A stretch of 64,000 nucleotides of DNA, from the NCBI GenBank assembly GCA_041674845.1, contig JBAYUY010000001.1, forward strand, positions 33,962 through 97,961. Direction: 5' to 3'. Source of the DNA: Candidatus Shapirobacteria bacterium (GTDB lineage Bacteria > Patescibacteriota > Microgenomatia > UBA12405). This document shows, piece by piece, positions 3,851-62,150 of the stretch (position 1 is its first letter; each line of letters opens with the position of its first letter). Both the position numbers and the translations under genes were made by a program. The notes beneath the pieces were generated by a model. That model saw only the letters and a list, made by a program, of their open reading frames with translations. It was not told the DNA's origin and searched no databases.

Positions 3851-3870
3851 TGACTATATTATAATAGATA

Positions 3871-7304: not shown

Positions 7305-7342
7305 TTATGTATAGGATAACATAACTGTGTGGCGTTGTCAAT

Positions 7343-9118
7343 TTATTTTAATTTTGTTTTCTTTTGAATTTGCCAAAGTTGGTAGAAGTATCCTTTGAGA
7401 GTTACCAATTGTTTGAAACTGCCGGTTTCGACGATTTTACCTTGATCGAACAGAACTATTTCATCGGTAAATCGCAAGGTTGATAGTCGATGGGCAATCC
7501 AAATAATTGTTTTTGATTCAAAATACTTTTCTAGATTGATTAGAATTTTGGCTTCTGTTTTGGAATCGAGTGCAGAGGTGCTTTCGTCAAAAATGATTAT
7601 TGGAGTATTTTTGTAAATAGCCCTAGCGATTCCCAATCGTTGTCTTTCACCGCCAGAAAGTTTGATGCCTTTTTCACCAAGATGTGTTTGATGATTATTT
7701 TTAATTTTGTCCAAAATGGTTTGACACTCGGCGGTTTTGATGGCGAGATTGTATAAGTCGAGATTAAATTTTTGGGAGGGGGAGCTGATGGTAATATTTT
7801 CTTTAAATGATAAATTAAATACTTCATTGTCTTGAGGGGCGACGCCAATATTTTGATGAAGTGAGTGGGTATTTATTTTTGAGATATCGGTGTGATTGTA
7901 GTAAATATGTCCTTTTGTACATGGATAAAGTTTTAGTAGAAGCTTGCTAAGTGTTGATTTGCCGGAACCGGATGATCCAACAAATCCGTATTTTTTTCCT
8001 TGATATAAAGTAATTGAAATATTATTTAAAACAGGTCTGTTGATTTGATATCCAAATGTAAGTTCTTCAATATTAATCATGTTAAGTTGGTTGGGAAAAG
8101 GTTTGACGCCATTTTCGGTAATACTGGTGCCTGATTGAAGTAATTGACGAACGCGAAAAAGCCCCAAATATTTTTCAATTAAATCGTTAACCCAATCAGC
8201 AACATCACTCAAACCGTCTTGAAGTCGATTAATGTAGCCCGTATATACAAAAAATGAGCCGAGTGAAATTTTATTATTAATAATATCGTTGACGATTAAA
8301 ATTATTCCAATGGTGTTACAGATTTGAGAAATAGTGTTGATATATATCCATTTATTGAATTCTTTGGTGGTGTATTTAATTGATTTTTCGGTGAGTTTTG
8401 ATTCTTTTTGAAATAATACTTTATTTATGTTTTGGCCAATACCAAGACTTTTTATAAGTGACATGTTGGAGAAATAGTCAAAATTTTTACCCATGACTTG
8501 GTCTGAGGTTCGATTGATTTGATGTCGTTGTTGATTTAGTTTTTTTGTTTGTTGAATTAAAATGACAGAATATAAAATTATGTTGATAAGACAAAGAAGG
8601 GCGTATTTTTGATTTAAAAACATAAGGGTAATCAATACTCCAAATACATTGACAAAAATATCGACACCTCCACCACCTTTGGTGACAAACTGAATCAGAT
8701 TTTTTAGCTGCTCTGAACCTCGAGCCAAAACAGAGATTTTTTTGCCCGAGTTTTGTTTTTCATGCCATTTTAGATCATACTTGAGTATGGTTGAAATCCA
8801 CAATTGACGACTGGAGAGACGACAAGCTTCGGCAAGTTTGTAGACTTGGAGTTTGATACGATTTCGTCCTACTATGCGACTATAACCGATTATAAAAATT
8901 GCTGATATGAGAAAAGGAATATTGTTGGTATTTCCTAGGGTAATGTTGTCAATTATTTTGGCGAGTAATAAGGGTATCGCGAGATTGGCGAGTGCAGAAA
9001 TAATATGGAGGAAGTACCAAAAGATTAGCCGACGATGAAATTTGTGGGTGTATTGCCAAAGGTCATGAAAAAATAACCCAATTGGGTAATTTATTTTTTT
9101 ATTTTGATCGAGAGACAT
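7343..9118 (-). CDS. ABC exporter, fused permease + ATPase (MsbA-like)
   Basis: N-terminal multi-TM domain; Walker A GSSGSGKST; signature LSGGERQR; Walker B IIIFDEST. Confidence 0.9.
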   Translation of the reverse strand: MSLDQNKKINYPIGLFFHDLWQYTHKFHRRLIFWYFLHIISALANLAIPLLLAKIIDNITLGNTNNIPFLISAIFIIGYSRIVGRNRIKLQVYKLAEACRLSSRQLWISTILKYDLKWHEKQNSGKKISVLARGSEQLKNLIQFVTKGGGGVDIFVNVFGVLITLMFLNQKYALLCLINIILYSVILIQQTKKLNQQRHQINRTSDQVMGKNFDYFSNMSLIKSLGIGQNINKVLFQKESKLTEKSIKYTTKEFNKWIYINTISQICNTIGIILIVNDIINNKISLGSFFVYTGYINRLQDGLSDVADWVNDLIEKYLGLFRVRQLLQSGTSITENGVKPFPNQLNMINIEELTFGYQINRPVLNNISITLYQGKKYGFVGSSGSGKSTLSKLLLKLYPCTKGHIYYNHTDISKINTHSLHQNIGVAPQDNEVFNLSFKENITISSPSQKFNLDLYNLAIKTAECQTILDKIKNNHQTHLGEKGIKLSGGERQRLGIARAIYKNTPIIIFDESTSALDSKTEAKILINLEKYFESKTIIWIAHRLSTLRFTDEIVLFDQGKIVETGSFKQLVTLKGYFYQLWQIQKKTKLK

Positions 9119-11930: not shown

Positions 11931-14367
11931 TCTAATGGAACCGGTATTATCAGAAAATGCCAAATATATTACTGAGAGTAGGTATGGAATAAAAGGACCG
12001 GATGGGAAATTAACAGAGTCGGTAAAAGATATTTTTTGGAGAGTGGCTATAAATATTGGTTTGCAAAATGAGGAAAAAGCCAAGATTTTTTATGAAATGA
12101 TGGCTGAACAAAAATTTTTGCCAAATACACCTTGTTTGGTTAATGCAGGCAAAAAAATGCAACAATTATCAGCTTGTTTTGTCCTCCCCGTCGATGATTC
12201 GATGGAATCGATTTTGACGACGATGAAAGATATGGCGATGATTCACAAAAGTGGTGGTGGAACAGGTTTTTCGTTTTCGCGTTTGCGACCAAGTGGGGAT
12301 TATATTGCGTCGTCTGGAGGAACTACAGTTGGTCCAGTGAGTTTTATGCAAGCATATAACGATGTGACAGGTCAAATAAAACAAGGAGGGGTACGGCGGG
12401 GAGCTAATATGGGAATGTTGTCAGTCGAACATCCTGATGTATTGCGGTTTGCGGTAGTAAAGCTTGATGAATATTCTTTGACAAATTTTAATATTTCTTT
12501 GGCCATAACAAATAAGTTTATGGACAAAATAGAATCGGACAAAAAATTTGTAAGTGATGATTCGATTCCTGAAGAAACGGTAGAAAAAATTCGAAAGGCT
12601 GAAGGAAATCGAGATGTTGATGCAAAATTGAAGGAAGTTGAAACTGAAGTTTTGAAATTGTATGAATGGGCAAAAGCTACGAATGATGGTGAAGGCTATG
12701 AATTGATTAATCCAAAAAATGGATTGGCAACAATGAAGTTAAATGCATATAAAGTATTTAATTTGGTCACTCGTCTGGCATGGCAATTTGGTGATCCTGG
12801 ATTGGTATTCATCGACCGAATGAATGATAGTAATAGTAATCCAGTACCAAAATTAGGCAGAATAGAGGCAACAAACCCTTGTGGTGAACAACCACTTTTG
12901 CCTTATGATGCGTGTAATTTGGGAAGTATAAATTTATCGCGATTTGTCCTTCGGCAAGCTCAGGATAAATTTGATTTAAATTGGGCTGATTTGGGAAGAG
13001 TGGTTCATGAGGCGATAGAATTTTTGGATAACGTGGTCGAAGTTAACCAATTTCCAGTACAACAAATTAGGGATATGGTGTCCAAAACTCGTCGTATTGG
13101 GTTGGGAGTGATGGGTTTTGCCGATATGTTGTTTAAATTAGGTATTCGATATAATTCCCCCGAAGGAATATTGTGGGCGGAAAAGGTAATGAAATTTATT
13201 AATGATGAATCAAAAAAAGCAACCGTTGATTTGGCCATGACTCGGGGAGTATTTCCAGCTTGGGAAGATAGTGTATTTGTAGGTACTGCTTATCGACCTC
13301 GTAATATGGCATTGACTACGATTGCGCCTACAGGAACCATATCAATGGTGGCCGATACCTCATCGGGGGTTGAACCAATTTTTTCCCTGGGATATCAAAA
13401 AAATACTGTTGAAGGAAAAACATTATATATAATGAATCCTGTTTTTGTGGAAGAATTAAAAAAGAGAAATATATATAGTGAGGAGTTGTTGGATAAAGTA
13501 GTTAAAAATGGAGGAAAACTAAATGGAATTGTTCAGATACCTGAAGATATAAAAAATATTTTTATAACGGCATTAGAAATTGATCCTGAATGGCATATTA
13601 AGATTCAGGCTGCTTTTCAAAAATATACTGATAATGCGGTATCAAAAACAATAAATTTTCCAAAAGAGGCATTGGTGGATGATGTAAGAAAGGCATATTT
13701 GCTGGCATATAGTTTAGGTACAAAGGGAATTACTATTTATCGATCGGGGAGTCGGGAAAAAGAAGTAATACAAACAGTTAAGGTTGAAGAAAAAATTAAT
13801 AGTAATTTAATAATTGAGCAAAAAAGTAAAAAGAGGACACCAGAAGCGGCTCGAGGGGTGAGATTGCGCAAAACTTGTGATGCAGGTAAAGTCTTTACCT
13901 CGGTCTTTTTTGAAGAAGGGGACGGACCAGTCGAAGTGTTTGTTAATTTGGGTAAATCGGGAGGTTACATGGCTGGATCGGCCGAGGTTACCGGTCGATT
14001 GGCGTCATTGGCACTAAAATATGGAGCAAATTTAGAAGAAGTGGCTGATGAATTGGTAGGAATATCTTGCGGCCAAAAGATCGGATTTGGAAATAGCATG
14101 ACATTGAGTATGTTTGATGCTGTTGGTAAAGCATTATTGGAAATTTCTAAAGGAGAACAATTAGAAATGTTTGAGGATGAAAAAGAAAAAATAGATTTGC
14201 CAAAAAATGATGAAATTAAAATTGATATTTTACAAGCAGTGCGGACCAAACATGCTGACACAGAAAGTAAATTTAGTTCGTGTCCCGATTGTGGTTCGCC
14301 TCTGTATGCGGAAGAGGGGTGTTTTAAATGTAGTAATAGTTACTGCGGGTATAGCAAGTGTTCATGA
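11920..14367 (+). CDS. nrdJ: adenosylcobalamin-dependent ribonucleotide reductase (class II)
   Basis: 815 aa; NPCGEQPLLPYDACNLGSINL active-site region; C-terminal CPDCG...CFKC zinc finger; 11-nt overlap with nrdR. Confidence 0.9.
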   Translation: MMNNLMEPVLSENAKYITESRYGIKGPDGKLTESVKDIFWRVAINIGLQNEEKAKIFYEMMAEQKFLPNTPCLVNAGKKMQQLSACFVLPVDDSMESILTTMKDMAMIHKSGGGTGFSFSRLRPSGDYIASSGGTTVGPVSFMQAYNDVTGQIKQGGVRRGANMGMLSVEHPDVLRFAVVKLDEYSLTNFNISLAITNKFMDKIESDKKFVSDDSIPEETVEKIRKAEGNRDVDAKLKEVETEVLKLYEWAKATNDGEGYELINPKNGLATMKLNAYKVFNLVTRLAWQFGDPGLVFIDRMNDSNSNPVPKLGRIEATNPCGEQPLLPYDACNLGSINLSRFVLRQAQDKFDLNWADLGRVVHEAIEFLDNVVEVNQFPVQQIRDMVSKTRRIGLGVMGFADMLFKLGIRYNSPEGILWAEKVMKFINDESKKATVDLAMTRGVFPAWEDSVFVGTAYRPRNMALTTIAPTGTISMVADTSSGVEPIFSLGYQKNTVEGKTLYIMNPVFVEELKKRNIYSEELLDKVVKNGGKLNGIVQIPEDIKNIFITALEIDPEWHIKIQAAFQKYTDNAVSKTINFPKEALVDDVRKAYLLAYSLGTKGITIYRSGSREKEVIQTVKVEEKINSNLIIEQKSKKRTPEAARGVRLRKTCDAGKVFTSVFFEEGDGPVEVFVNLGKSGGYMAGSAEVTGRLASLALKYGANLEEVADELVGISCGQKIGFGNSMTLSMFDAVGKALLEISKGEQLEMFEDEKEKIDLPKNDEIKIDILQAVRTKHADTESKFSSCPDCGSPLYAEEGCFKCSNSYCGYSKCS

Positions 14368-47608: not shown

Positions 47609-47683
47609 TCCCCTGTAGCTCAATGGTAGAGCGCCCGCCTGTTAAGCGGATGGTTTGTGGTCCGAATCCACACGGGGGAGCCA
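47609..47683 (+). tRNA. tRNA-Asn (GTT)
   Basis: Manual fold: TCCCCTG/CGGGGGA acceptor; anticodon loop CTGTTAA; CCA encoded; C27:A43 mismatch. Confidence 0.85.
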
Positions 47684-49255
47684 ACTTGGATTTGCAGGTC
47701 GCAAATCATCATATTTAGCCATGATTTCCGTATACTTTTGAGGTTCCAGCCAACCTTTATATTTACTGTCCCAGTTTTGTTTATTGGCCAGTACTCCATA
47801 TTCAGGTTTTAGGTCAACTTCCAGCATTTTGTCAGGTTTAAGTAATAGGTTCTCGCCAACAGTTAGAAGTATCATTTGTCTGTCTTCTCTAGTACCTATT
47901 TTAAACTTATTCTGACACGCCTTAGCAAAATCAATAGTCTTTTCTACTTTTACTCTCCAGTCCTCCAAATCTTCATCTGTATTTGCTAATTTTGACTTAA
48001 TTTCATTTTTTTCCTTCTCAAGATTTTGTTTCTTTTCCTTGTAAGTCGCATCGTCTATACTTTCATCCAACTTCATGTCCAAAAGCCTATTTAATCGGAT
48101 TTCTACCTTGGATAATTGGGATTGTTGATTTTTTAGTTTTTCCTCCTTAAAACCAGACTCATCCTTGTGAACAGCAGATAACCATTTATTTGACCAGTCA
48201 ACAAAATCTTGGTCGGGAGCTAAACTGGCTAAAATTTTATCAATTTGATTTAAAATGTCATTCTCGGTCAGTGGTTTTGAATGGCATTGTATATTTTTAT
48301 TTTTTCTAGTGCAGTAATAATAAACATAGGTAGCTGTTCTGCCAGTACCCTTGTAATACTTTATTTTTTGCGTTGCCGTCATTGCAGAGCCACACTCAGT
48401 ACAGCGAAATAGACCAGTCAAATCAAAAGTATGTTTTCTGGCAATCGGTTTTCCAAACTTGCCCAAAGCTCTTTGAACTACATCAAACTCTTCCCTGGTA
48501 ATCATTGGTGTGTGGGATCCTTTAAACCAGTTTCCAGAGTTCTTAGGCCATTCATACTCGCCATAATAAAATGGTTTTGTTAATAAATTGTAAAATGTTG
48601 ATTGAGAAATGACTCTTCCTTGCTGACTGGTTAATTTCCATTCTTCTGAAACTTCACGGTAAACTTCGCATGGCTGTTTCCCTGAAATTACTTCAGCAAA
48701 CATTCTTTTTACTAAAGGAAACCTTTCCTCATCAATAACTATTTCCTTAAACCCCTTTTTGCCAGTTGGTGTATTTTTGTATCCTAGTGTGGCAGGAGCA
48801 GGATACCAACCCATCTCCGCCTTAGTTTTCATACCTCTCTGACTATTTTTACCAAGATCGTCTATGAATTTTTGTGCCATACCAAATTCTAAGGACATCA
48901 ACAGACTGTCTTCGTTTATTTGAGAATACGTTTTACTAGGGGTAATGATTTCCACCTTCAAGTCTTTCATTGCCCAACTGATAGCACCACCATCAACGGG
49001 ATTTCTTGATAGTCTGTCTAATTTCCAGCATAAAATACCTTCGGCATCACCCTTTGCTAGTCCAGACATCATTTCTGCGAATAGTGGTCTGCCTGGAGCT
49101 TTTGCAGACATTGACTCCTCAAAAGTTTCAATAATTGTTAATTCAGCCTTATTGGCGAACTGTCTAAGTTCTTTAACCTGAGAAGGAAGAGATAACATTT
49201 GTTTATCCTCACCTTCTGACGATCTCCTGCAATACATGTATACTCTTTTTTTCAT
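47642..49255 (-). CDS. large serine recombinase
   Basis: YCRRSSEGE nucleophile motif; recombinase domain; zinc ribbon CTECGS...YYCTRKNKNIQC; coiled-coil. The last 14 codons are encoded by the tRNA-Asn 3' half. Confidence 0.85.
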   Translation of the reverse strand: MKKRVYMYCRRSSEGEDKQMLSLPSQVKELRQFANKAELTIIETFEESMSAKAPGRPLFAEMMSGLAKGDAEGILCWKLDRLSRNPVDGGAISWAMKDLKVEIITPSKTYSQINEDSLLMSLEFGMAQKFIDDLGKNSQRGMKTKAEMGWYPAPATLGYKNTPTGKKGFKEIVIDEERFPLVKRMFAEVISGKQPCEVYREVSEEWKLTSQQGRVISQSTFYNLLTKPFYYGEYEWPKNSGNWFKGSHTPMITREEFDVVQRALGKFGKPIARKHTFDLTGLFRCTECGSAMTATQKIKYYKGTGRTATYVYYYCTRKNKNIQCHSKPLTENDILNQIDKILASLAPDQDFVDWSNKWLSAVHKDESGFKEEKLKNQQSQLSKVEIRLNRLLDMKLDESIDDATYKEKKQNLEKEKNEIKSKLANTDEDLEDWRVKVEKTIDFAKACQNKFKIGTREDRQMILLTVGENLLLKPDKMLEVDLKPEYGVLANKQNWDSKYKGWLEPQKYTEIMAKYDDLRPANPSWLPRVDSDHKPSA

Positions 49256-49274
49256 AGTTCACTTTTTAAAAAAT

Positions 49275-49356
49275 AATGCCCCCACTAGTGCAACCAGAAC
49301 CGTAAAGTCCTGTCTAGTGAGGGCATTAAAAAACTCTACGGATTTTCTGGTTGCAC
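49275..49356 (-). promoter_or_regulatory. interleaved inverted repeats upstream of the recombinase gene
   Basis: A=AATGCCCCCACTAG (49275-88), B=TGCAACCAGAACCGTA (49289-304), A'=CTAGTGAGGGCATT (49314-27), B'=TACGG-att-TTCTGGTTGCA (49337-55). The order A-B-A'-B' is followed by a T-run on the minus strand after A. Confidence 0.5.
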
Positions 49357-49473
49357 TTATATTTTATATCTTTTTGTAATCCAATTCATCTTATTGGAAG
49401 TAGGCACTATAACCATAATTAAATATTTTTTAATTATTACTTTATAGTCATATAACTATATAATTAATAGTTA

Positions 49474-49773
49474 CTATCTATTAACCCCTTCGCCTTTATC
49501 TAATTTATCTTTATAGGCGTCGTAAATTTGTGATTCTAATGCTTCCCAACACATTGAGTCCTCAAAATAGACTTTTGGGAAATACCTCACTCCTTTGAAC
49601 AAAGTTGGTGGTTCAATATTGATATGCTCACCTAACCTCTCATTAAGATAAGCACTTTTCCAAATGGCAAAATCCTTAATTATTATCATCCCGTATTCAC
49701 TGGTATGCATTTCTACGTTTGCATTTGCTAATAAATTACCTTTGTTCTTAATTTTTATTTTTATGTCAGACAT
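49474..49773 (-). CDS. hypothetical protein, weakly SpoVG-like
   Basis: 99 aa; IKIKNKGNLLANANVEM...IIIKDFAIW pattern resembles the SpoVG N-terminus. Confidence 0.3.
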   Translation of the reverse strand: MSDIKIKIKNKGNLLANANVEMHTSEYGMIIIKDFAIWKSAYLNERLGEHINIEPPTLFKGVRYFPKVYFEDSMCWEALESQIYDAYKDKLDKGEGVNR

Positions 49774-49788
49774 TCTTTTATAAAATAA

Positions 49789-50016
49789 TTAACAGTCAAT
49801 ATCCAAAAAAGCGTCCAATGCCTCAAACAAGTCTTTCTCGCTAAAGTACACCCCCTCATTACCCCCGGACCGATAAGTAACACGTAAGTCAAAAGAGCAA
49901 TTTTGAAATTTATTTACCTTAAGAAAATGGAATATTTTACGTGATTTCCTACTGCTTAAACTTTTAACTACTTTTGAGTCCAAGACAACTTTTACTGAGA
50001 TCTTAGGTTTGATCAT
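49789..50016 (-). CDS. hypothetical 75-aa protein
   Basis: ORF in a co-directional tight gene string. Confidence 0.4.
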   Translation of the reverse strand: MIKPKISVKVVLDSKVVKSLSSRKSRKIFHFLKVNKFQNCSFDLRVTYRSGGNEGVYFSEKDLFEALDAFLDIDC

Positions 50017-50158
50017 TTTTTGTTTTTGATGAAATTAATAACCTTAGACTTAAAAATTGTTTTGCCTTGATTTCGGACTCGTTATAATCCAAAAGAACCC
50101 CAAACTTTTGCTGATAAATTTTTTGGAAATCAACCACCGCTTCTTTAGGCAAGTTCAT
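50003..50158 (-). CDS. hypothetical 51-aa protein (unlisted)
   Basis: Hand-translated MNLPKEAVVDFQKIYQQKFGVLLDYNESEIKAKQFLSLRLLISSKTKNDQT; ATGA overlap with the upstream gene stop. Confidence 0.35.
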   Translation of the reverse strand: MNLPKEAVVDFQKIYQQKFGVLLDYNESEIKAKQFLSLRLLISSKTKNDQT

Positions 50159-50403
50159 AAGATTTCATACATTCTTGCCTTTAAATCTTTAATTTGGGTA
50201 AAATGCTCGCAGGCATCAACAGAAAGCCTTTTATTCCAGTAATCGGAAACTAATTTATGGAGTTGTGGGGTATTTTCAAAACAGAACACACAGTTTTTGT
50301 CGGTTGGAGATTTTTCAATCTCAAGAACAGGACAGAACAGAGATAGGGCACTAGCCAAGGCTAACGAGTTGGTTTTATAGTAATATGTATTTTTATCTTT
50401 CAC
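50155..50403 (-). CDS. DUF5659-like small protein
   Basis: YKTNSLALASALSLF...EIEKSPTDKNCVFCFE pattern; paralog at 60543-60779. Confidence 0.5.
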   Translation of the reverse strand: MKDKNTYYYKTNSLALASALSLFCPVLEIEKSPTDKNCVFCFENTPQLHKLVSDYWNKRLSVDACEHFTQIKDLKARMYEIL

Positions 50404-50478
50404 TCAGCAATTTTCCGCCAAGGACGTTCTCTTTTTTATGAGGGTCTTTGTCGGAAAAAGTTCGGAAATTAATTATTC

Positions 50479-51165
50479 TTATTTTGCGTATCTTAAGGAA
50501 ATTTTGTATCCAACACCTCTAATATTTCTCACAAATTGTTTAGCAGTTTTAATAGTCAATCCAACGGAGTTGGTTAGATAATTTAATAAGTCATCCCTGG
50601 TTTCATAAATTTGCTGTTCGGCAATCCTAGGATCTGTCTTTCTCATTTTGTCTAAGCCGAACTCTCTATCAATTTCCTTAAACGATACATATCCTGGGTA
50701 TTTATAAAGTAACAACTTTAATAATTTAATACCATTTTTACCCAATGGTAGATCAAATTTAGTTGTTTTGTAGGTAATTGTGCTTTCTTTTAAATCTATT
50801 GAAATCCTAAATTTAAAGTTAAACAGATTTTTATTGTCATTTCCTACGCGTGCTTTAAGCAGTCGCAAGTAATTTTCTAATGCTTCTTCATCAAGACTAA
50901 ATATAAATAATGGGGCGTTTGTTTGAGGTTTGTTATTTAGCCATCCATCCATGTCTCCTGTAAGTGTGTATCTTGTGTTGCCAGAATTCTCGCAGACATT
51001 TTCAATTACAGCCATTATTTGTTCGTCCGTAGCTAAAGATAAGTTTTGTTGGATATGGTCATACTCAACGTCAATACACTGTGACGTTGCAGCGAACTGG
51101 CTATAAGAGATTAATAAGTCAATCAATTTAATTTGAAGACGATTGAACGGTGTATCAATTTTCAT
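50479..51165 (-). CDS. DNA-binding protein with C-terminal OmpR/PhoB-type winged helix
   Basis: LLKLLLYKYPGYVSFKEI...VRNIRGVGYKISL. Confidence 0.55.
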   Translation of the reverse strand: MKIDTPFNRLQIKLIDLLISYSQFAATSQCIDVEYDHIQQNLSLATDEQIMAVIENVCENSGNTRYTLTGDMDGWLNNKPQTNAPLFIFSLDEEALENYLRLLKARVGNDNKNLFNFKFRISIDLKESTITYKTTKFDLPLGKNGIKLLKLLLYKYPGYVSFKEIDREFGLDKMRKTDPRIAEQQIYETRDDLLNYLTNSVGLTIKTAKQFVRNIRGVGYKISLRYAK

Positions 51166-51232
51166 ACTTATATATATTTGAATCTACCGTATTATCTCCT
51201 ATTTACACTGAAAAATGTCTGGAATATGTGGA

Positions 51233-51472
51233 TCAGAGAAGTGGACGAACAACGTAGTACATGAACATTAGGAATAAGCCAGGCAGTAAGGATATAATTG
51301 CAGCCACCTTAACCTCTTTGTTTTTATGTATTGAAAACAGTAAGGGAATTATGAAAAGTGAAACGATATTTATCGGGCTCTTGTCCCAAAAGTAACCAGT
51401 TAATTGATTAAAGGCATACGAAGAAAGTAAAAATAGTCCAATCCATAAAAACACAATCTTTTTAATTTCCAT
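51233..51472 (-). CDS. small membrane protein (79 aa, 3 TM)
   Basis: Hydrophobic segments only. Confidence 0.4.
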   Translation of the reverse strand: MEIKKIVFLWIGLFLLSSYAFNQLTGYFWDKSPINIVSLFIIPLLFSIHKNKEVKVAAIISLLPGLFLMFMYYVVRPLL

Positions 51473-51502
51473 TTATATTCTTTAATGATTAATATATAAA
51501 CT

Positions 51503-51964
51503 CTAGCGATTTATAAATAACACAACTGCTGAAATTAGCAAAGCTAAAACACATATTGCTACTACATTCTTTTGGGAAGTTGACCAGCTATTAATTTCTG
51601 CCGACTCCTTTGGATATAAACTAGCCAATACTTCTGGGTGCTTAAATAATAGGGGAGCCGTTCCGACTAGCGAGTACAAAGCGTAATTAAAAATTGGTAG
51701 TGAGTCAGAAATATACTTCAGAATCTGAAGAGACGAGCCAATCAGAAAAATACCTACAAAGCTTAAACCCGATATATATGCCAGTTTTTTAGTCCAATCA
51801 CCTGACTTAAAACGCTCTTGTTTTAATAGTGAATAAAATGCAATTGGAAACAAAATTGCAAAAATGACAACAACTATTGGAGCTACTGTGTCCAAAAGCA
51901 TACACATTGGTAAATCTGGGTTAGTACTACAAGCTTGGTTTATTTGATAGCTTAATACGCTCAT
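51503..51964 (-). CDS. membrane protein (153 aa, 4 TM)
   Basis: Hydrophobic segments only. Confidence 0.4.
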   Translation of the reverse strand: MSVLSYQINQACSTNPDLPMCMLLDTVAPIVVVIFAILFPIAFYSLLKQERFKSGDWTKKLAYISGLSFVGIFLIGSSLQILKYISDSLPIFNYALYSLVGTAPLLFKHPEVLASLYPKESAEINSWSTSQKNVVAICVLALLISAVVLFINR

Positions 51965-51991
51965 ATTGATGTTTATGCCACCGATTTAACT

Positions 51992-52008
51992 ATTAACCTG
52001 TGGTTAAT
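51992..52008. promoter_or_regulatory. operator palindrome O1
   Basis: ATTAACC-TGT-GGTTAAT perfect 7-bp arms in the divergent region between 51964 and 52087. Confidence 0.55.
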
Positions 52009-52036
52009 GAAAATATACCATATTTGTGCCCAAAAC

Positions 52037-52052
52037 ATAACCAGTGGTTAAT
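52037..52052. promoter_or_regulatory. operator palindrome O2
   Basis: TAACC-AGT-GGTTA core; centre is 44 bp from the O1 centre. Confidence 0.5.
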
Positions 52053-52086
52053 AAACTTATTCTGGATAGATTGGTAACTTTGTTTG

Positions 52087-52305
52087 ATGGAAGACAGGAA
52101 AATTACCCAAAAGGATATACAATTCGGGAGAAAACTTCAAAGAGTCAGGAAAAAAGCTGGTTTAACTCAAGAAAAGCTTGCGGATGAGACACGACTTAGC
52201 ACCACATTTATCGGATTGATTGAAACTGGTAGGAGAAGACCAAGTATGAAGACGCTTCAAAAAATAGCCTCCTCATTGGATATAAACATCAAAGATTTGT
52301 TTTAA
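52087..52305 (+). CDS. XRE-family HTH regulator
   Basis: GRKLQRVRKKAGLTQEKLADETRLSTTFIGLIETGRRRPS. Confidence 0.8.
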   Translation: MEDRKITQKDIQFGRKLQRVRKKAGLTQEKLADETRLSTTFIGLIETGRRRPSMKTLQKIASSLDINIKDLF

Positions 52306-52722
52306 GTCACGCCAGTTAATTATTTTATTTAGGCATGACAGCCTGAGTATATGATTAATTTTGTAGTCAAAACTCAATCACTGTAGTACAGCAAATAATT
52401 GTGTGTTTAGGCCAAAAAAGGATATGAATCTCCGCTTTTCGCTATTATCTTAACCAAATGTAAAACCGTTGTTAATAATCAGTTGGTGTTCTCAAAAGTA
52501 ATTTAATTTGTTAATAGATAAATAAAATGAACGACTTTCGCACATTACTATGAACTTGTTTCACGAGGTAACCATTTCCTCAAAAACAAGTAAACAGCGT
52601 AAACAAGAGACACATTTTACATATAAAGTTTATATATACGAAAAAAAGTAAAAAAAAATCGCCGTATTTATCGCAAAAATAGATAGTAGAAATAGGTAAA
52701 ACAAACTGTTACGATAATGTAG

Positions 52723-53826
52723 GTGAATATAAAATCCGTAGAAAACATAGTTGAGTCGTTCGTTTTTAATGATAATACAAAAGTACTCAGTATTTTATAT
52801 GAAGAACTAAAAAAGGCGAAAGATAGTAAAAAAACTAATTTAGCAAGGAGAATCCAACTATTAATTAGAAAAATACCCAAAAGCCGAATTATTAGCTCTC
52901 AAGGTACTAACTATTTTTCTGGTAATGAGGGAAGCATTCCTAATCCACTTTACGAAAGATTTATTTCCACGACCCCACTGGAAGAAGTAATACTTAACGA
53001 AGATGCAAAAACACTAATCCACCAGTTCATAGAAGAGTGGAATAATATTGATAGGCTAACTGAATTTGGTGTCAGACCAGCGAATAAGTTGCTGTTTTTT
53101 GGCCCTCCAGGTACCGGAAAAACAAAACTAGCATATGCTATTGCAAGTAGCTTAAATATTCCACTTATATTAATTAGACTAGATGAAGTTATATCGTCAT
53201 ATTTAGGTAAAACTGGGAAAAATATCAGAGAAATATTTGATTTAGCAGGTAAAGAAAAGTCTTTAATATTTTTAGACGAAATTGATACCCTTGCTAAACA
53301 TCGTGATGACGAAACTGAATTGGGAGAGCTAAAAAGGGTGGTGACTGTTCTATTGCAAAATATAGATAGTTTTCCAGAAGAATCAATTTTAATAGGTGCA
53401 ACTAATCACGAAAATTTACTTGACAATGCAATATGGCGTAGATTTCCGGTAAAAGTAAACTTTAATTTACCAAATAATAACAGTAGATTAAAACTTTTTG
53501 AACTGTATCTACATCCTTTCAAGTTAGATGTAGATATAAACTTATTGGCGAAAACAACTAAAGGGTTCAGTGGGTCCATGATTAACGATGCGTGTGAAAT
53601 GATGAAAAAGTATACGATCATGTCTCACTCAACAAAATTAAATGTAATAAATGCTTTTAAAGGAATCTTGTACATCTTAGGCTCTCGCAATAATGGAACC
53701 GATATTAAAACTAAAAAAACAGTATATAACATTTTAAGTTTTTTATATAAAAACGGATTTACTCTTAAAGACCTTAGTAAAATATCTTCCATTCCATATA
53801 CAACATTGGTGGATAATATTAAATAA
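52723..53826 (+). CDS. classical AAA+ ATPase (IetA-like)
   Basis: GTG start; Walker A GPPGTGKT; Walker B LIFLDEID; sensor-1 GATNHENLLD; Arg-finger region AIWRRF. Confidence 0.8.
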   Translation: MNIKSVENIVESFVFNDNTKVLSILYEELKKAKDSKKTNLARRIQLLIRKIPKSRIISSQGTNYFSGNEGSIPNPLYERFISTTPLEEVILNEDAKTLIHQFIEEWNNIDRLTEFGVRPANKLLFFGPPGTGKTKLAYAIASSLNIPLILIRLDEVISSYLGKTGKNIREIFDLAGKEKSLIFLDEIDTLAKHRDDETELGELKRVVTVLLQNIDSFPEESILIGATNHENLLDNAIWRRFPVKVNFNLPNNNSRLKLFELYLHPFKLDVDINLLAKTTKGFSGSMINDACEMMKKYTIMSHSTKLNVINAFKGILYILGSRNNGTDIKTKKTVYNILSFLYKNGFTLKDLSKISSIPYTTLVDNIK

Positions 53827-56240
53827 TGTTAAGTAAAATACTAGTACCTAGAAATACAGCAAAAAGAAGTGTGCCTTTTGGTCGGGATGATTTTATGGAA
53901 AAGTTTTGGCTCGGCTTTAATGAGCCGGAGAAATACGAGTCAAAGAAAAAGCTAATCTCTGAGAAGATTCAATCATTAACCTCAAAAGTAAAAGATGACC
54001 ATTGGCTATATGCAGAGATAAAACTAAACGATGACTCAAATACTAAATCTAAACAGCCATCCCTAGTTTGGTCGCAAAGTGGTTTGGACATTGTTTCTGC
54101 TGTTGATTCCCAAAATTACATTATCGGTGGTAAAAAAAATGATTTTGAAAGACTAGATAAAATTATAAGTTCAAGTAAATTTTCTATTGCAAAAACCGGA
54201 GACGGAGTAAGTAAAAAAACAAAGAATTTATATAGAGAAATATACACAATATCAGACTTTACTGATAAGAATACTTCGTATACAGGTAGAGTTGACGCAC
54301 AAATAGAAGAGCTAATCTCAAAGAAAGAATTTGAAACAGATCTGCTCTGTATATTGGAAATCAACTCAAACATTAATAGATCGGAATATGAAGATATCTA
54401 TTTGCAGATCAACTCATTTGTTGGTGACAAAAAAATCAAAAAGCTACCAATAGAGTTATTTATACATAATATGCAATATCAGGGAGCATTCAAGGTCAAA
54501 GAAATTTTTGGCCTGCTTACAGATATCAGATATTCCTATATTTCCCGTATTAAAATTATGCCTTCATACTCATGTCAAAACTGCATACCTAACTATGATC
54601 TTGGAGAAATAAAAATACTTCCTCCAGAGACCAATGAAATTATTGGAATAATTGATAGCGGCATTGATGATAAAAGCAAAATTTTTAACTCCTTAAAATT
54701 CCTTCATTTGAATCGTACGCCAGATGATAAGAAATGCAACAAAAACCACGGAACTTTTGTTGCTAGCCGTATATTATTTGGAGATAAGATATTTAATTCG
54801 GTCCATAACGGTTATTTAGCTCCTTCTGCAAAGTTTCTTGATATTCAAGTCTTGTATGACAACAATCAAGGTGACGGCGATACTGATGTGGACACAGTCC
54901 AACTGAAAACAGTAATTGACGAAGTGATAAACAAGTATGAGGATATACATATTTACAACCTTTCAATTAATGACAAAGAAGGCATACGATATGACATAAT
55001 GCCAGTTGATGATTTATCTGAGTTTATTGATGAACGAGTCCGAGAGAAGGATATTATTTTTGTTGTAAGTAGCGGAAATCATAAATTTTATCCTTCAGGT
55101 GACTACAAAAAGAATCCAGATGACTATTACAAAATATTTTCCGATAATACCACTGATACTCACATTGCGTCACCTGGAGATGCGCTAAATGTAATTACAG
55201 TAGGTTCAAATTCTTTAAATGCGGACAATAATTGTATCTGTAAAGTACAAGGATATCCGTCTCCTTTTACAAGAAAAGGTGGGTTGCGAGGCGGCTGGAA
55301 AAAACCCGAATTGGTAATGGACGGAGGAAACATCTTAGCTCCAAATAATCCTGCTGACTTCAGTGATGATGCCTTTTCGGAGGTTAGTAACAATAAATGT
55401 GGTGTTGAAGGAATAACTTTGGGTGGCAAGTTGTCAAAACAGTGTGGAAGCAGTTTTAGTACCCCACTAGTAACAAGACAGTGTGCATATTTGCTAGATA
55501 ATATTAAGAAGACAAACGCATCAAGTTTGTTAAAGCTTAACGGGAATAGAATAAATCTTGTTAAAGCGTTAATGATTCATTCAACAAATAAAATCCCTCA
55601 AGCTAAGATTGATGACAAAGATTTAAAACTGGCATACGGTTTTGGTGTCCCTGACATAGGAACTCTATTGCGGGATGATGAAAATCAAGTATCTATTGTC
55701 TATAGTGATATCTTGGAATATGATAAAAAAATTCACAAGTTACAAATAAAAATACCAGACGAGTTAGTAGGTGGTTCGGCTGAATTCATTTTCACATTGG
55801 TTTACAATCCTCCTGTAAATAAGAATTATCCAAGTGAATATAACATGACTTCAATTAATTCAAATTTGAGGTTTGTTTTGCCACCAAAGCTAAATACAAA
55901 GACAAATAAATTTGTACAAAACTATAGTCCCCTGATAAACAAATGGAGTTGGGAAAATTATCGTAAAAAATTCTTTAACGTAATTAACTTCAAGAACATT
56001 AAACAAAAAATCCCTTCCACTCTAATTGAAGTTTACGCTCAATTGTCTGTATCACCCTTCTATTTACAGGAAAAACTGGGTCATGAAAAAGAAATACTAC
56101 AACCATACACCTTTGTTCTGACCATAAGAGATGTTTTAAAAAGGAATATTTTACGCAACGAACTACTGTTAAGTAATCAGTTTAATAAGATTGAAATCTC
56201 GCAACAAGTTAAAATAAAAACAGAAATCAATACAAAATAA
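53826..56240 (+). CDS. S8 subtilisin-like serine protease with large N- and C-terminal extensions (IetS-like)
   Basis: Triad motifs IIDSGID (Asp), NHGTFVAS (His), GSSFSTP (Ser); TAATG overlap with the ATPase gene. Confidence 0.8.
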   Translation: MLSKILVPRNTAKRSVPFGRDDFMEKFWLGFNEPEKYESKKKLISEKIQSLTSKVKDDHWLYAEIKLNDDSNTKSKQPSLVWSQSGLDIVSAVDSQNYIIGGKKNDFERLDKIISSSKFSIAKTGDGVSKKTKNLYREIYTISDFTDKNTSYTGRVDAQIEELISKKEFETDLLCILEINSNINRSEYEDIYLQINSFVGDKKIKKLPIELFIHNMQYQGAFKVKEIFGLLTDIRYSYISRIKIMPSYSCQNCIPNYDLGEIKILPPETNEIIGIIDSGIDDKSKIFNSLKFLHLNRTPDDKKCNKNHGTFVASRILFGDKIFNSVHNGYLAPSAKFLDIQVLYDNNQGDGDTDVDTVQLKTVIDEVINKYEDIHIYNLSINDKEGIRYDIMPVDDLSEFIDERVREKDIIFVVSSGNHKFYPSGDYKKNPDDYYKIFSDNTTDTHIASPGDALNVITVGSNSLNADNNCICKVQGYPSPFTRKGGLRGGWKKPELVMDGGNILAPNNPADFSDDAFSEVSNNKCGVEGITLGGKLSKQCGSSFSTPLVTRQCAYLLDNIKKTNASSLLKLNGNRINLVKALMIHSTNKIPQAKIDDKDLKLAYGFGVPDIGTLLRDDENQVSIVYSDILEYDKKIHKLQIKIPDELVGGSAEFIFTLVYNPPVNKNYPSEYNMTSINSNLRFVLPPKLNTKTNKFVQNYSPLINKWSWENYRKKFFNVINFKNIKQKIPSTLIEVYAQLSVSPFYLQEKLGHEKEILQPYTFVLTIRDVLKRNILRNELLLSNQFNKIEISQQVKIKTEINTK

Positions 56241-56432
56241 TCTCTTTATTCCTGACTTTGTCGTCTCCAATAATAAAGTATTAAGAAACAGTCTAGCTTT
56301 CATGTCCACAGCATCTGTTGCAAATTTTTCATCAATCAAAGTTTCTTTTAATCCTTATATTTTTACTTACAAACCGCTTTACTAGACATACATTCAAAAG
56401 TGAGGGGTGGGTGGGGTGTTATACAATAACTT

Positions 56433-57689
56433 ATGGGTCCAATAATAATATTTGATAAGTCAGCACTTCAATCAATTAGCTTGGATGAATCAGTTTTTCT
56501 TCAAAACTTTTTTCTAACGAATATGACACCTATTTTTTTAATTGAAACTCTTGCTGACTTGGAGAAGGAACCAAATAAAGGGAAAAGCCCAGAGCAAATA
56601 GTAGGCGAGTTGGCAAATAAGACACCGGAAATGGGGATTATGCCTAATATATATCATCATAATTTAGTTATTGGAGATTTGTTGGGGCGTACCGTTGAGA
56701 TGAGCAGGCGTCCAATTATTGACGGTGGAACACCAAAAATTACACCAGATGGAAAGATAGGTTTTTACTTTGACGAGCCTCCAGAAAAAAAGGCGCTAAA
56801 AAGATGGCAAGACAGGAAGTTTTTAGAAGTAGAAAGAGATTATGCAAGAGAATGGAGACAATCATTGTCCAATCTCAGTTTTGAAACTCAAATGGGAATG
56901 GTAAAAAATATTGTCCCTCCAGAAGTACATTTTAGTAACCTTTCCGACATAAAGGCATTTATTGATAAATTTATTGCAACTAAAGATAAGTCTGTTCTTG
57001 ACTTAGCTTTTGAAATTCTGGAAGTACCAAGTAAATTACGCACTTTTGTTTACGAAAGGTGGAATAAGGATGGGCAACCACCTATTAATATTTTTTCGCC
57101 TTATGCATCTTTTGTCTTATCGGTTGATTTAGTTTTTTACTTGGGCTTAAATTCAAGCTTTATCTCTAAGGACAGGCCGAGTAATAAAATTGACCTTTCC
57201 TATCTTTATTACCTACCTTTTTGTATGGTATTCGTTTCAAAAGACAAACTTCACCAAAGAACAGTACCTCTATTCTTAAAAGAAGGACAGGTCTTTGTTT
57301 GGGGAGATGATTTTAAGGAGGGGATGAAAGAACTAGATAATTATTTTTCCCAGTATCAGGAAGAAATTAGTAAGCACGGACTTATCAGATTTGCCCCCTA
57401 CCCACCACAAAACTCTTTTATATCAAAGCTTTGGGACACAATGGGGTCAAAATGGAGAGGTGATGCAAGCAAAGCGCCGTTAGCAAAATCTTTTCCAACA
57501 CTACCCAATGACAGTTCATTAGTAAAACGTTTAAATAAGATGAGGGATGAAGCAAAACCGCTTGCTAATCCAGAGTTATATTCACCAGATGATGCCGACC
57601 ATGTAACTATTTCTCATATGGTTCACCTTAATAAGGGTAAATGGCGAATCCTTCCTGAAGGGATTGAAAATAACGGTGATAAAGATTAA
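56433..57689 (+). CDS. hypothetical 418-aa protein, possible split PIN-like nuclease
   Basis: N-terminal IIIFDKSALQSISL...LIETLADL and distal YYLPFCMVFVSKDK resemble PIN acidic motifs; weak. Confidence 0.3.
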   Translation: MGPIIIFDKSALQSISLDESVFLQNFFLTNMTPIFLIETLADLEKEPNKGKSPEQIVGELANKTPEMGIMPNIYHHNLVIGDLLGRTVEMSRRPIIDGGTPKITPDGKIGFYFDEPPEKKALKRWQDRKFLEVERDYAREWRQSLSNLSFETQMGMVKNIVPPEVHFSNLSDIKAFIDKFIATKDKSVLDLAFEILEVPSKLRTFVYERWNKDGQPPINIFSPYASFVLSVDLVFYLGLNSSFISKDRPSNKIDLSYLYYLPFCMVFVSKDKLHQRTVPLFLKEGQVFVWGDDFKEGMKELDNYFSQYQEEISKHGLIRFAPYPPQNSFISKLWDTMGSKWRGDASKAPLAKSFPTLPNDSSLVKRLNKMRDEAKPLANPELYSPDDADHVTISHMVHLNKGKWRILPEGIENNGDKD

Positions 57690-57750
57690 CTTTAAACCAT
57701 CTAATTATTGGTGTTATTATTTATTTAATATAGTCGTTTATTAAGAAAAT

Positions 57751-58053
57751 ATGGCATTAATCAATTGTCCTGAATGTAAACAACAAATTTCTGACACTGC
57801 TCCAACCTGTCCACATTGTGGTTTTATCCAACATGCTACACCCGTTGAAGGTTCTGGAAACTTAAATCAAAAAACAATTACAATTGAATCAACAAATAAG
57901 ACATGGAAATTGGTCATGATAGTGGCTATTTTAGTGTTTATTATTGGTGGTATGGTGGGTGCTTCTGATAGAGAATTCGGTTTTTCTTTAGTCGGATTGA
58001 GTGTATTAATTTTTATCGTAGCAAAAATTGGTGCTTGGTGGAGCAATAAATAA
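57751..58053 (+). CDS. zinc-ribbon protein with two C-terminal TM helices
   Basis: CPECKQQISDTAPTCPHCG, then two hydrophobic helices. Confidence 0.6.
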   Translation: MALINCPECKQQISDTAPTCPHCGFIQHATPVEGSGNLNQKTITIESTNKTWKLVMIVAILVFIIGGMVGASDREFGFSLVGLSVLIFIVAKIGAWWSNK

Positions 58054-58077
58054 AGGTATTTACCGCCTAAGTTATCT

Positions 58078-59616
58078 TTAATACCCACACACAGCAGTCC
58101 TAATTGACTCCAAGGCGGGGAGCAGAGACTTACTTAATATAACCTTATTATTTTCCGCTAAGATAGAGATAATTGGTGTGTAGACTACTCTCGATATTTG
58201 ACGATCCTTGACATAAATCTTCTCAAAAAAGAATCTGAGGTAATGTCGTTTCAAAAACTCGGGAGCGTCAATGTAAGTTTGATGAATGTTTTGTGTAAAA
58301 GATAGAACTTCCTCAACTAAATTGATTTCTAAGTTTCCACCCTTTTCGATCTTATTGATTTCATTGCTAATGTTTTCGATCCTATCTTGAATCTCGGTGT
58401 GTTTGCGTTTAAAGACGGTTCTATCAATAGTCCCGTCGAGTAAGTTGTCCTCTAATCGATTTCTTTTGGTCTCAAGGCCGGTCTTTTGGTTGACATAGGC
58501 CTGTATTCTTGAAGCCGTGTTTTTTCTGCCATCGGCGATATGTTCTTTACACTTTTCGATCACCATATCGATAAATGTTTGTGAGAATTGAACTGTTTTC
58601 ATTAGTTCTTCAACTTGTGTTTCCAAATTTACCATTTCAATATAAACAGCTGGACAATTATTTCGGTCCCTTTTAGGACAGTGATAATAAGCTATTTTAC
58701 CTCCTCGAGCCTTTAAACTCACTTCGTCCTTGTGCCATTCGGCGGTGAATCTTTGCCCACAATGGTCACAATAAATAAAGCCTCTTAATAAAAAATTGTG
58801 TACTCGTTTGCGGATTAAAAAACTTCGGTGCTTGGCTGCCACATATTGGCAAATGTCGTACAGTTCTTTGGTAATTATTGGTATCTGATTACCCATTTTT
58901 GATTCACCATGCCATCGTATAAGGCCGTAATAGAAGGGATTTCGCAAAATATTATTTAATGTACTCCTGCCAAATATTGTGCCATTTTTAGAGACCATAT
59001 TTCGGTCCTCTAACCAATCTTGTAAATATATGAGTGAATAGTTGCCGGTTGAATAAAGTTCATATAGTTCCTTAACGATTGGAGCAACCACTGGATCAGG
59101 GATACAAGTTTTTCGTTCTCTGTCTCCACCGATTGATTTATAACCAATCGGTGGGGGAGTTGGTTGCCAACCCTCAAAATACTTTTGACTTAGGGCGTCT
59201 CTTGTCCTTTGCCCATTAACCTCACTTTCCCATTGAGCCACACTGGCAAAAATGTTTGGAATCAGACTATTTCCTCCTTCCATTAAATCACCCTCATTGA
59301 TTGACAGCAATTTAATATTCTTATCTTTTAGGGTTGCGTACATTCGGGTGAAGTCGTTAACATTTCGAGCAAACCGATCAATTTTATAAATAATCACTGC
59401 GTCTACCGGTTCTTCTTCAATCAACTTAAACATTCTTTGTAACTCTGGCCTGTCGGCTGTTTTACCACTTTTTCCACTATCATCAAAAATTTCCTTTATG
59501 CGATATTCACGATCCTTAGCGTATTGCCGACATTGTCTAATCTGATTGTCAGTTGAGAATCCCTCATTCTTTTGTTCGTCAGATGAAACACGGATATATA
59601 GATAACAGTTTTTCAT
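58078..59616 (-). CDS. large serine recombinase
   Basis: YIRVSSDEQ nucleophile motif; DRFARN; recombinase domain; zinc ribbon CDHCGQ...YYHCPKRDRNNC; coiled-coil. Confidence 0.85.
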   Translation of the reverse strand: MKNCYLYIRVSSDEQKNEGFSTDNQIRQCRQYAKDREYRIKEIFDDSGKSGKTADRPELQRMFKLIEEEPVDAVIIYKIDRFARNVNDFTRMYATLKDKNIKLLSINEGDLMEGGNSLIPNIFASVAQWESEVNGQRTRDALSQKYFEGWQPTPPPIGYKSIGGDRERKTCIPDPVVAPIVKELYELYSTGNYSLIYLQDWLEDRNMVSKNGTIFGRSTLNNILRNPFYYGLIRWHGESKMGNQIPIITKELYDICQYVAAKHRSFLIRKRVHNFLLRGFIYCDHCGQRFTAEWHKDEVSLKARGGKIAYYHCPKRDRNNCPAVYIEMVNLETQVEELMKTVQFSQTFIDMVIEKCKEHIADGRKNTASRIQAYVNQKTGLETKRNRLEDNLLDGTIDRTVFKRKHTEIQDRIENISNEINKIEKGGNLEINLVEEVLSFTQNIHQTYIDAPEFLKRHYLRFFFEKIYVKDRQISRVVYTPIISILAENNKVILSKSLLPALESIRTAVCGY

Positions 59617-61818: not shown

Positions 61819-61985
61819 TTTTATATTTATGTTTATGTTTGTACTTAGGCATATTATACGTCGTTCAAAATTAAAAATAATCGGTATTTTTCAGCTACTA
61901 TTGTCAATAGGGCTAAATCGACATATAATTACCTCAACAATCAGTTTGCCTAAACTCTACAGCAATGTGGGGCATGGTAATAAAT

Positions 61986-62030
61986 CCGAGTTAAGGGGCG
62001 CAAGCTCTCTGTTAGCTTTCCTTAACTCGG
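61986..62030 (+). other. strong hairpin within a relatively GC-rich non-coding stretch
   Basis: Perfect 11-bp stem CCGAGTTAAGG / CCTTAACTCGG with a 23-nt loop; further stems (GATTC-GAAA-GAGTC, CTCTC...GAGAG) up to about 62110. Confidence 0.5.
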
Positions 62031-62150
62031 TAATATGTCGAAAGATATATTGGATTGATTCGAAAGAGTCTCTCCGGTTAGCAGAGAGCTTTTGCCTTTC
62101 TGCTGGCATACCACTGATCAATTTATTATTTGAGAGCTAATAAATTGACT

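Follow-up and report, generated by a model that had tools for sequence, protein, structure and literature searches.

F418, a widespread solitary protein family with a possible PIN-like metal centre, in the cargo region of a tRNA-Asn-integrated element of a Candidatus Shapirobacteria bacterium

The gene F418, a 418-aa open reading frame (ORF), lies in a 64,000-nucleotide stretch of the genome of a Candidatus Shapirobacteria bacterium (NCBI GenBank assembly GCA_041674845.1, contig JBAYUY010000001.1, positions 33,962 to 97,961; the whole stretch is hereafter the window), where it forms part of the cargo of an integrated element that we call element A. Among described proteins, the VapC-type PIN (PF01850), PIN_12 (PF16289) and NYN (PF01936) families of the PIN clan share with F418 the order of the sheet and four acidic positions, and the PIN_12/DUF4935 proteins of the host's phylum (~370-385 aa) also have a helical insertion between the helix bearing the Glu and the helix bearing the Asp, as F418 does. 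However, F418 is unlike the members of this clan in having no detectable profile or Foldseek similarity to them, in the larger size of its insertion (~175 residues, supplying invariant Arg and Trp) and in its 110-residue C-terminal extension, and unlike VapBC it has no adjacent antitoxin. A further described system, IetAS, reportedly goes back to Gao et al. in 2020. It is an anti-phage system of the toxin-antitoxin type, and a variant with an extra essential helicase, IetH, is known as ietHAS (PMC13069673). A bona fide IetA/IetS pair stands directly upstream of F418 in the window, but F418 is not a helicase, and none of 80 other loci with an F418 homologue has IetAS beside it. Element A itself resembles the defence-cargo hotspots of the P2/P4 type and defence islands in that conserved ends surround a variable slot for immune genes, whereas it differs from P2/P4-type hotspots in being neither a prophage nor a satellite but a large-serine-recombinase element that targets tRNA-Asn in an ultra-small (~1.2 Mb) genome. 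We tentatively propose that F418 is a stand-alone predicted metal-dependent nuclease with a PIN-like active site, carried as single-gene defence cargo, and that three independent modules lie side by side in this region.

The protein was divided on the basis of its predicted structure, conservation and co-variation, as follows:

56433..57689, + strand, F418, the 418-aa ORF (ORF call, homologues, AlphaFold model)
56433..56657, + strand, F418 residues 1-75, N-terminal half of the alpha/beta core (AlphaFold secondary structure, invariant residues, co-variation)
56658..57179, + strand, F418 residues 76-249, mainly helical insertion after beta3 (AlphaFold, co-variation)
57180..57350, + strand, F418 residues 250-306, C-terminal half of the core (AlphaFold, conservation, co-variation)
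57351..57686, + strand, F418 residues 307-418, C-terminal extension (AlphaFold, co-variation)

From an alignment of 33 sequences AlphaFold2 modelled F418 as a single body (predicted local distance difference test, pLDDT, 89.3; predicted template-modelling score, pTM, 0.88), and the top contacts from mean-field direct coupling analysis (DCA) of 311 family sequences (effective sequence number, Neff, 260) were consistent with the strands of that model. The N-terminal half of the core comprises beta1 (4-7) followed by D8-K9-S10, beta2 (28-31), a helix with E38 and D42, and beta3 (~69-72); the C-terminal half begins with a helix carrying D254 and a YLYYLPF motif and continues with beta4 (266-269), S269-K-D271, H274 and beta5 (287-290). 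DCA placed beta3 beside beta2 (contacts 30-72 and 29-69), beta2 beside beta1 (6-32), beta1 beside beta4 (5-268 and 4-265) and beta4 beside beta5 (270-291), with the best contact of each pairing between the 99.96th and the 99.995th percentile and alternative pairings lower. As these contacts agree with the predicted strands, residues 1-75 and 250-306 form one five-stranded parallel Rossmann-like sheet of order 3-2-1-4-5, which is interrupted after beta3 by the insertion of ~175 mainly helical residues. The insertion contains a beta-hairpin (98-113) and the invariant residues E118, R124, W125, W141, R142 and Y224. Strands 388-393 and 398-405 of the C-terminal extension, which include a KGKWRILP motif, pair with this hairpin (contacts 110-390, 108-389, 390-401 and 66-398), while the helix 132-146, which holds W141 and R142, packs against the E38 helix (41-138, 40-134 and 44-139, and in addition 137-253).

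Conservation is concentrated on the same core. The sequence-only reading of this DNA had singled out the motifs IIIFDKS (residues 4-10), LIETLADL (36-43) and FVSKDK (267-272) in the first of two adjacent ORFs; both ORFs and all the motifs are present, and the motifs prove to be the invariant core of the family. D8, K9, S10, E38, D42, D254, S269, D271 and H274 are invariant in the 33-sequence alignment, and all of these except D42 are at least 97% conserved in the 311 sequences. Residues flanking the invariant acidic ones co-vary (7-35, 37-253, 11-268, 14-270 and 253-272), which suggests that D8, E38, D254 and S269-x-D271 are grouped at the C-terminal edge of the sheet. The positions correspond to those of PIN proteins, with acidic residues after beta1 (D8), in the helix after beta2 (E38), in the helix before beta4 (D254) and after beta4 (S269-x-D271), and the strand order obtained from AlphaFold and DCA also fits the three-layer alpha/beta/alpha core of the PIN superfamily. 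Mechanistically, F418 is best guessed to act as a metal-dependent nuclease of the PIN type, a predicted activity that we consider somewhat probable. Membership of the PIN family as such is plausible, in that topology and motifs fit, without statistical support from profile or fold searches.

The F418 family is large, and it has so far gone without annotation. Homologues number more than 1,500 overall, with 33-63% identity across the full length; a set of 5.8 billion proteins held 1,531 of them, nearly all 405-430 aa, full-length and 43-63% identical. At 50% identity there are 1,822 representative clusters, 579 of these at E<=1e-30. Every named member is labelled "hypothetical protein", and neither the single sequence nor the family profile had a match in Pfam, PADLOC, NCBIfam, PHROGs or the sequences of the PDB. 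A pattern scan covering a single genome for each species returned 363 carriers, and the family extends over at least 15 phyla. Carriers belong to the Patescibacteria, Actinomycetota, Acidobacteriota, Gamma-, Alpha- and Deltaproteobacteria, Myxococcota, Planctomycetota, Gemmatimonadota, Ignavibacteria, Nitrospira, Zixibacteria, Dormibacterota, Binatia and Bacteroidales, and include one Promethearchaeota (Asgard) archaeon; among the cultured hosts of a homologue is Halomonas lysinitropha (L086). Within the host's order homologues occur in just two of 132 genomes, the window's own genome being one of the two, and none was found in the other genomes of the host's genus that were searched. The gene is nearly absent from mobile replicons and viruses, with no match among 50,697 phage records, one partial match among 72,556 plasmids and three matches among 2.9 million IMG/VR contigs. 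Since homologues are many yet patchy in the host's order, F418 is an accessory, horizontally transferred and strongly constrained gene. Overall, this is a large, widely transferred and solitary family without annotation that is probably catalytic, and the locus is a worthwhile candidate, not a demonstrated system.

The surroundings of the gene were compared at 80 genome loci with an F418 homologue, using flanks of up to 8 kb and phmmer searches for IetA, IetS and the small gene that follows F418 in the window (ZnTM, below). None of the three was found beside a homologue at any of the 80 loci, the sole hit being a weak AAA match (E=3e-4), and none was near the homologue in four metagenome contexts or in the copy carried by genome G055. 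The sequence-only reading had named independent occurrence of the genes in other genomes as a ground for rejecting it; in these comparisons the genes do occur independently of each other. Clustering of the 1,229 neighbouring ORFs from the 80 loci did not reveal a conserved partner of F418 either, and the largest clusters were tyrosine integrases (8), XRE regulators (6), serine recombinases (5), LexA-like proteins (4) and RtcB (4). An integrase or serine recombinase was located within 8 kb of the homologue at 13 of the 80 loci. Domains of the immediate co-directional neighbours (n=78) include TIR, DUF1883, SMODS+AGS_C, Mrr, YgjP, the type I specificity subunit, PD-(D/E)xK, Schlafen/AlbA (SLFN), NACHT and NA-iREase. 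PADLOC matches in 138 neighbours comprise a CBASS cyclase (3e-179) and its transmembrane (TM) effector, mad2, RT-TIR, components of type IIG and type I restriction-modification (RM) systems, AbiEi, dGTPase, retron and DRT reverse transcriptases, and the candidate families PDC-S58 and PDC-S66. The four metagenome contexts contain MmeI-type RM, a Zeta toxin, an SLFN helicase and AAA_15/21 ATPases. Genome G055 belongs to the host's family. There (L201, G055:C4, 4460-5943) the F418 homologue is the second gene of a translationally coupled bicistron, its start codon coinciding with the end of a 76-aa XRE gene; the pair stands between two large serine recombinase genes, without IetAS.

Some of these arrangements recur within a clade. 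A CBASS-type operon is found in L010 and L012 (6129-7979 in both) and in L002 (5487-7976). It encodes a repressor resembling LexA, a TM effector of 172 aa and a SMODS/AGS_C cyclase of 440 aa, and it ends 6 bp upstream of the F418 homologue in L010 and L012 and 24 bp upstream of it in L002. In four Acidobacteriota loci (L049, L052, L060 and L072) an RtcB RNA ligase gene is located directly upstream on the same strand, at a distance of ~70-230 bp. This neighbour may hint at an RNA substrate, or it may reflect mere inheritance within one clade.

A number of results weigh against the interpretation of F418 as a PIN-like defence nuclease. The 3-2-1-4-5 strand order is common to many Rossmann-like folds and is not specific to PIN. 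The acidic cluster is deduced from the co-variation of neighbouring residues at a modest Neff (260) and is not measured on coordinates. When the 33 members were compared with Pfam by hmmscan (E<=10), no family of the PIN clan was returned, only a weak DUF7809. The whole F418 alignment, each of its halves (N and C) and a core spliced from them were also aligned by hhalign with locally built profiles of PIN (29 sequences), PIN_12 (2), NYN (28) and HAD_2 (27), and the probability was below 2% for PIN, PIN_12 and NYN; this procedure is of low sensitivity, as the known PIN-NYN pair scores just 0.8% and PIN-PIN_12 59%. A comparison restricted in register scored the same as column-shuffled controls. 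Foldseek searches of the PDB with the F418 model gave a best match of E=0.09, to tryptophanyl-tRNA synthetase (TrpRS), with template-modelling scores (TM-scores) of 0.13-0.17. Searches of BFVD gave no significant match and placed a PIN-domain protein third (E=0.63). As a sequential local aligner, Foldseek is unable to span the 175-residue split of the core. With regard to biological role, F418 shows the context pattern of a defence-island resident, but the association is a qualitative one. RtcB upstream of F418 in the four Acidobacteriota loci could also mean RNA repair or processing instead of immunity, and no conserved partner able to restrain a toxic nuclease emerged from the 80 loci. The earlier suggestion of a PIN domain split by a large insertion is thus upheld by topology and by the acidic positions, but not by Pfam hmmscan, hhalign or Foldseek, none of which gave a statistically supported PIN match.

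Two other resemblances were considered and rejected. The likeness to TrpRS fails on the TM-scores given above, and F418 has neither a HIGH nor a KMSKS motif. Within the insertion, residues ~124-183 (window 56802-56981) resemble DUF7809 (PF25100) below threshold in five of the 33 members, with a best match of E=4e-4 and 17 bits against a cut-off of 27. DUF7809, itself a domain without assigned function, was rejected as the identity of F418 because this weak, partial similarity is only sub-threshold and covers 60 residues. No DUF7809 match above the cut-off occurs in 301 genomes of the phylum, and we found no mention of the domain in the literature. A 420-aa frame in genome G406 likewise shows sub-threshold similarity to DUF7809.

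The remaining features of element A and its borders in the window are:

47609-47683, + strand, tRNA-Asn, left end of element A
47642-49255, - strand, large serine recombinase 1, overlapping tRNA-Asn
52084..52305, + strand, XRE/C-protein-like helix-turn-helix (HTH) regulator, first of the rightward cargo genes (Pfam HTH_3 3.5e-14; PADLOC Control_protein 1.3e-15)
52723-53826, + strand, IetA, AAA ATPase (PADLOC IetA 1.2e-96; Pfam AAA 8e-32)
53826-56240, + strand, IetS, S8 protease (PADLOC IetS 1.5e-67; Pfam Peptidase_S8 2e-27)
57751..58053, + strand, ZnTM, 100-aa ORF with a zinc ribbon and two TM helices (ORF call, PF13248 match)
58085..58124, + strand, tRNA-Asn 3'-half-like remnant, putative right att of element A (blastn and alignments)
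58078-59616, - strand, second recombinase, with its C-terminus encoded across the tRNA-Asn remnant, at the beginning of the tandem element B

Judged by these profile matches, the ATPase/protease pair is a clear IetA/IetS defence system and a separate cargo module. F418 and ZnTM are co-directional with it, as had been noted from the letters alone; F418 follows ietS after 192 bp and ZnTM follows F418 after 61 bp. A scan of 51.9-58.3 kb for promoters, terminators and RNA structure performed no better than on shuffled sequence, and no terminator was predicted between ietS and F418. The 5' region of F418 showed no RNA structure (z=+1.4). A G-rich tract, GTGAGGGGTGGGTGGGGTG, is located at 56400-56418, 15 nt 5' of the F418 start codon, in a region that is otherwise 34% GC; possible readings are an extended ribosome-binding region and a G-quadruplex-like element.

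ZnTM has the architecture that the sequence-only reading had described, a CxxC...CxxC ribbon (C6-x2-C9...C20-x2-C23) followed by two hydrophobic TM helices (~52-71 and 76-97), with the zinc ribbon cytoplasmic. Its match to Zn_ribbon_3 (PF13248; E=1.3e-6, 28.1 bits) passes the cut-off of 27. Small zinc-ribbon membrane proteins such as PF13248, UPF0547 and the N-terminus of TcaA are likewise built of such a ribbon followed by TM helices, whereas ZnTM is a narrow family, with ~17 close homologues at 60-89% identity, and gives no sign of an effector role. With more than 1,500 homologues of F418 and ~17 close homologues of ZnTM, conservation argues that both are real genes, not chance ORFs. In the host's family a full-length ZnTM is present in one of 104 genomes, that of the window itself. 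Homologues with 72-89% identity follow a 334-aa protein (L151-L153), a 726-aa PLD+dsrm protein (L162) or a 176-aa protein in a housekeeping region (L163), never F418, and IetAS is missing at all of these loci. The earlier idea of ZnTM as an effector-type partner was therefore not borne out; the gene is instead a backbone gene at the att end of the element, with three other upstream neighbours elsewhere.

The ends of element A became visible by comparison of related loci. DNA homology between the window and L151 covers 57705-58123 and ends in sequence resembling the 3' half of tRNA-Asn, and the same remnant is found 3' of ZnTM in L151 and L162, from which we take element A to extend from tRNA-Asn (47609) to ~58124. 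Long direct repeats that could serve as att sites were not found, and the att remnant surfaced only through the related loci. The C-terminal codons of recombinase 2 overlap the remnant (58069-58132) in the way that recombinase 1 overlaps the intact tRNA-Asn. In the related contig L151 the remnant occurs four times (3835-3874, 4519-4579, 7330-7372 and 13015-13067), a pattern suggestive of either successive integration events or decay here. L162 (1047-10952) has the same ends as window 47642-58127: on the left a large serine recombinase homologous to that of the window together with small genes, DUF5659 among them, and on the right ZnTM. In between it carries a 307-aa 3keto-disac_hyd protein, a 514-aa protein without assigned function and the 726-aa PLD+dsrm protein. 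Because the ends are the same and the cargo differs, a variable cargo slot can be defined. On this comparative evidence ZnTM is the terminal backbone gene of element A, ordinary and functionally unlinked to F418, and by the same comparison IetAS and F418 occupy the variable slot. Within the tandem element B, an Rfam LOOT RNA (RF03000) was matched at 61947-62061 (+) with 74 bits against a gathering score of 46.4, which explains a structured, GC-rich non-coding stretch there.

The arrangement in the window naturally invites the idea that adjacent genes act together. F418, with or without ZnTM, could be an accessory of IetAS, whether sensor, effector or extra antitoxin, much as IetH is in ietHAS. 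It is co-directional with the pair at a short distance without a predicted terminator, and IetAS is known in variants that need an additional gene (PMC13069673). However, neither IetA nor IetS accompanies F418 at the 80 loci, in the four metagenome contexts or in G055, F418 stands behind many unrelated genes and ZnTM occurs without IetAS or F418. The gene-neighbourhood data largely refute an accessory role, which we regard as highly improbable. A two-gene system of F418 and ZnTM, in which a cytoplasmic nuclease or sensor would work with a membrane-disrupting effector, is scarcely credible and is refuted at the level of co-occurrence. The two genes are adjacent and co-directional, and a zinc ribbon with TM helices is a plausible architecture for a small effector, but F418 has no ZnTM homologue nearby at the 80 loci, the closer ZnTM homologues follow three other genes, and ZnTM and the att remnant are conserved jointly as the end of the element.

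Other explanations leave F418 solitary and change what it does. It may be a non-nuclease enzyme on a Rossmann-like scaffold, such as a HAD-like phosphatase or phosphotransferase or a hydrolase of nucleotide signals, with a function in RNA repair or signal turnover and not in killing. HAD folds would accommodate the strand order and the point of insertion after beta3 (like a C2 cap), the D-K-S after beta1 resembles the DKT of P-type ATPases, and T32 follows beta2. But the second Asp of HAD motif I is absent, the Lys of motif III (position 252) is variable, nothing in HAD proteins corresponds to the invariant residues E38 and D254, and the hhalign probability against the HAD_2 profile of 27 sequences was 0.4%. 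More generally, a non-nuclease enzyme would agree with the best Foldseek matches, which are Rossmann-plus-helical enzymes, with RtcB directly upstream in the four Acidobacteriota loci and with the CBASS cyclase just upstream in L010, L012 and L002; against this, there is no Gly-rich nucleotide-binding loop, and the RtcB link and the CBASS link are each limited to one clade. We consider such an enzyme unlikely. It is distinctly unlikely that F418 serves its carrier elements instead of host defence, whether by countering defences, by competing with other elements or by processing the DNA or RNA of the element. The gene is cargo of recombinase elements in the window and in G055, and an integrase or recombinase lies within 8 kb at 13 of the 80 loci, yet most loci have no adjacent recombinase within that distance, phages, plasmids and viral contigs nearly lack the family, and its neighbours are mainly immune genes of host type.

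IetA/IetS, the solitary F418 and the terminal ZnTM are best explained as three independent modules in the cargo region of the tRNA-Asn-integrated element (47609 to ~58124). If F418 is a stand-alone defence nuclease, D8, E38, D254 and S269-x-D271 would bind Mg2+ or Mn2+, and the 175-residue insertion together with the C-terminal extension would form a cap. This cap would bring R124, W125, W141, R142 and Y224 close to the active site, and it may select or gate the substrate. Upon infection the enzyme would cut RNA or DNA of the invader or of the host. A role as a single-gene defence effector is suggested by the distribution of F418, which travels alone across at least 15 phyla, is found among anti-phage systems and on integrative elements, and hardly occurs in phages or plasmids. 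A more speculative possibility is that F418 founds an unrecognised, widespread family of single-gene immune proteins, comprising no fewer than 1,800 clusters (50% identity) from 15 or more bacterial phyla and an Asgard archaeon, built around a split, capped PIN-like metal centre whose cap resembles nothing in the PDB or among predicted structures of viral proteins, and that the cap senses infection and releases the nuclease.

Were F418 an immune nuclease, a compact single-gene system would be added to the catalogue of defences. The family is common in uncultured lineages (Patescibacteria, Actinomycetota and Acidobacteriota) and is missed by Pfam, PADLOC and NCBIfam, while strong conservation and a high-confidence model make it tractable for structural and biochemical work. 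Even should F418 prove to be an ordinary accessory hydrolase, the false reading of the locus as a "four-gene system" is corrected. For the ultra-small bacteria that carry them, the tRNA-Asn serine-recombinase elements appear as units with fixed ends and swapped immune cargo, a view that aids the reading of similar islands.

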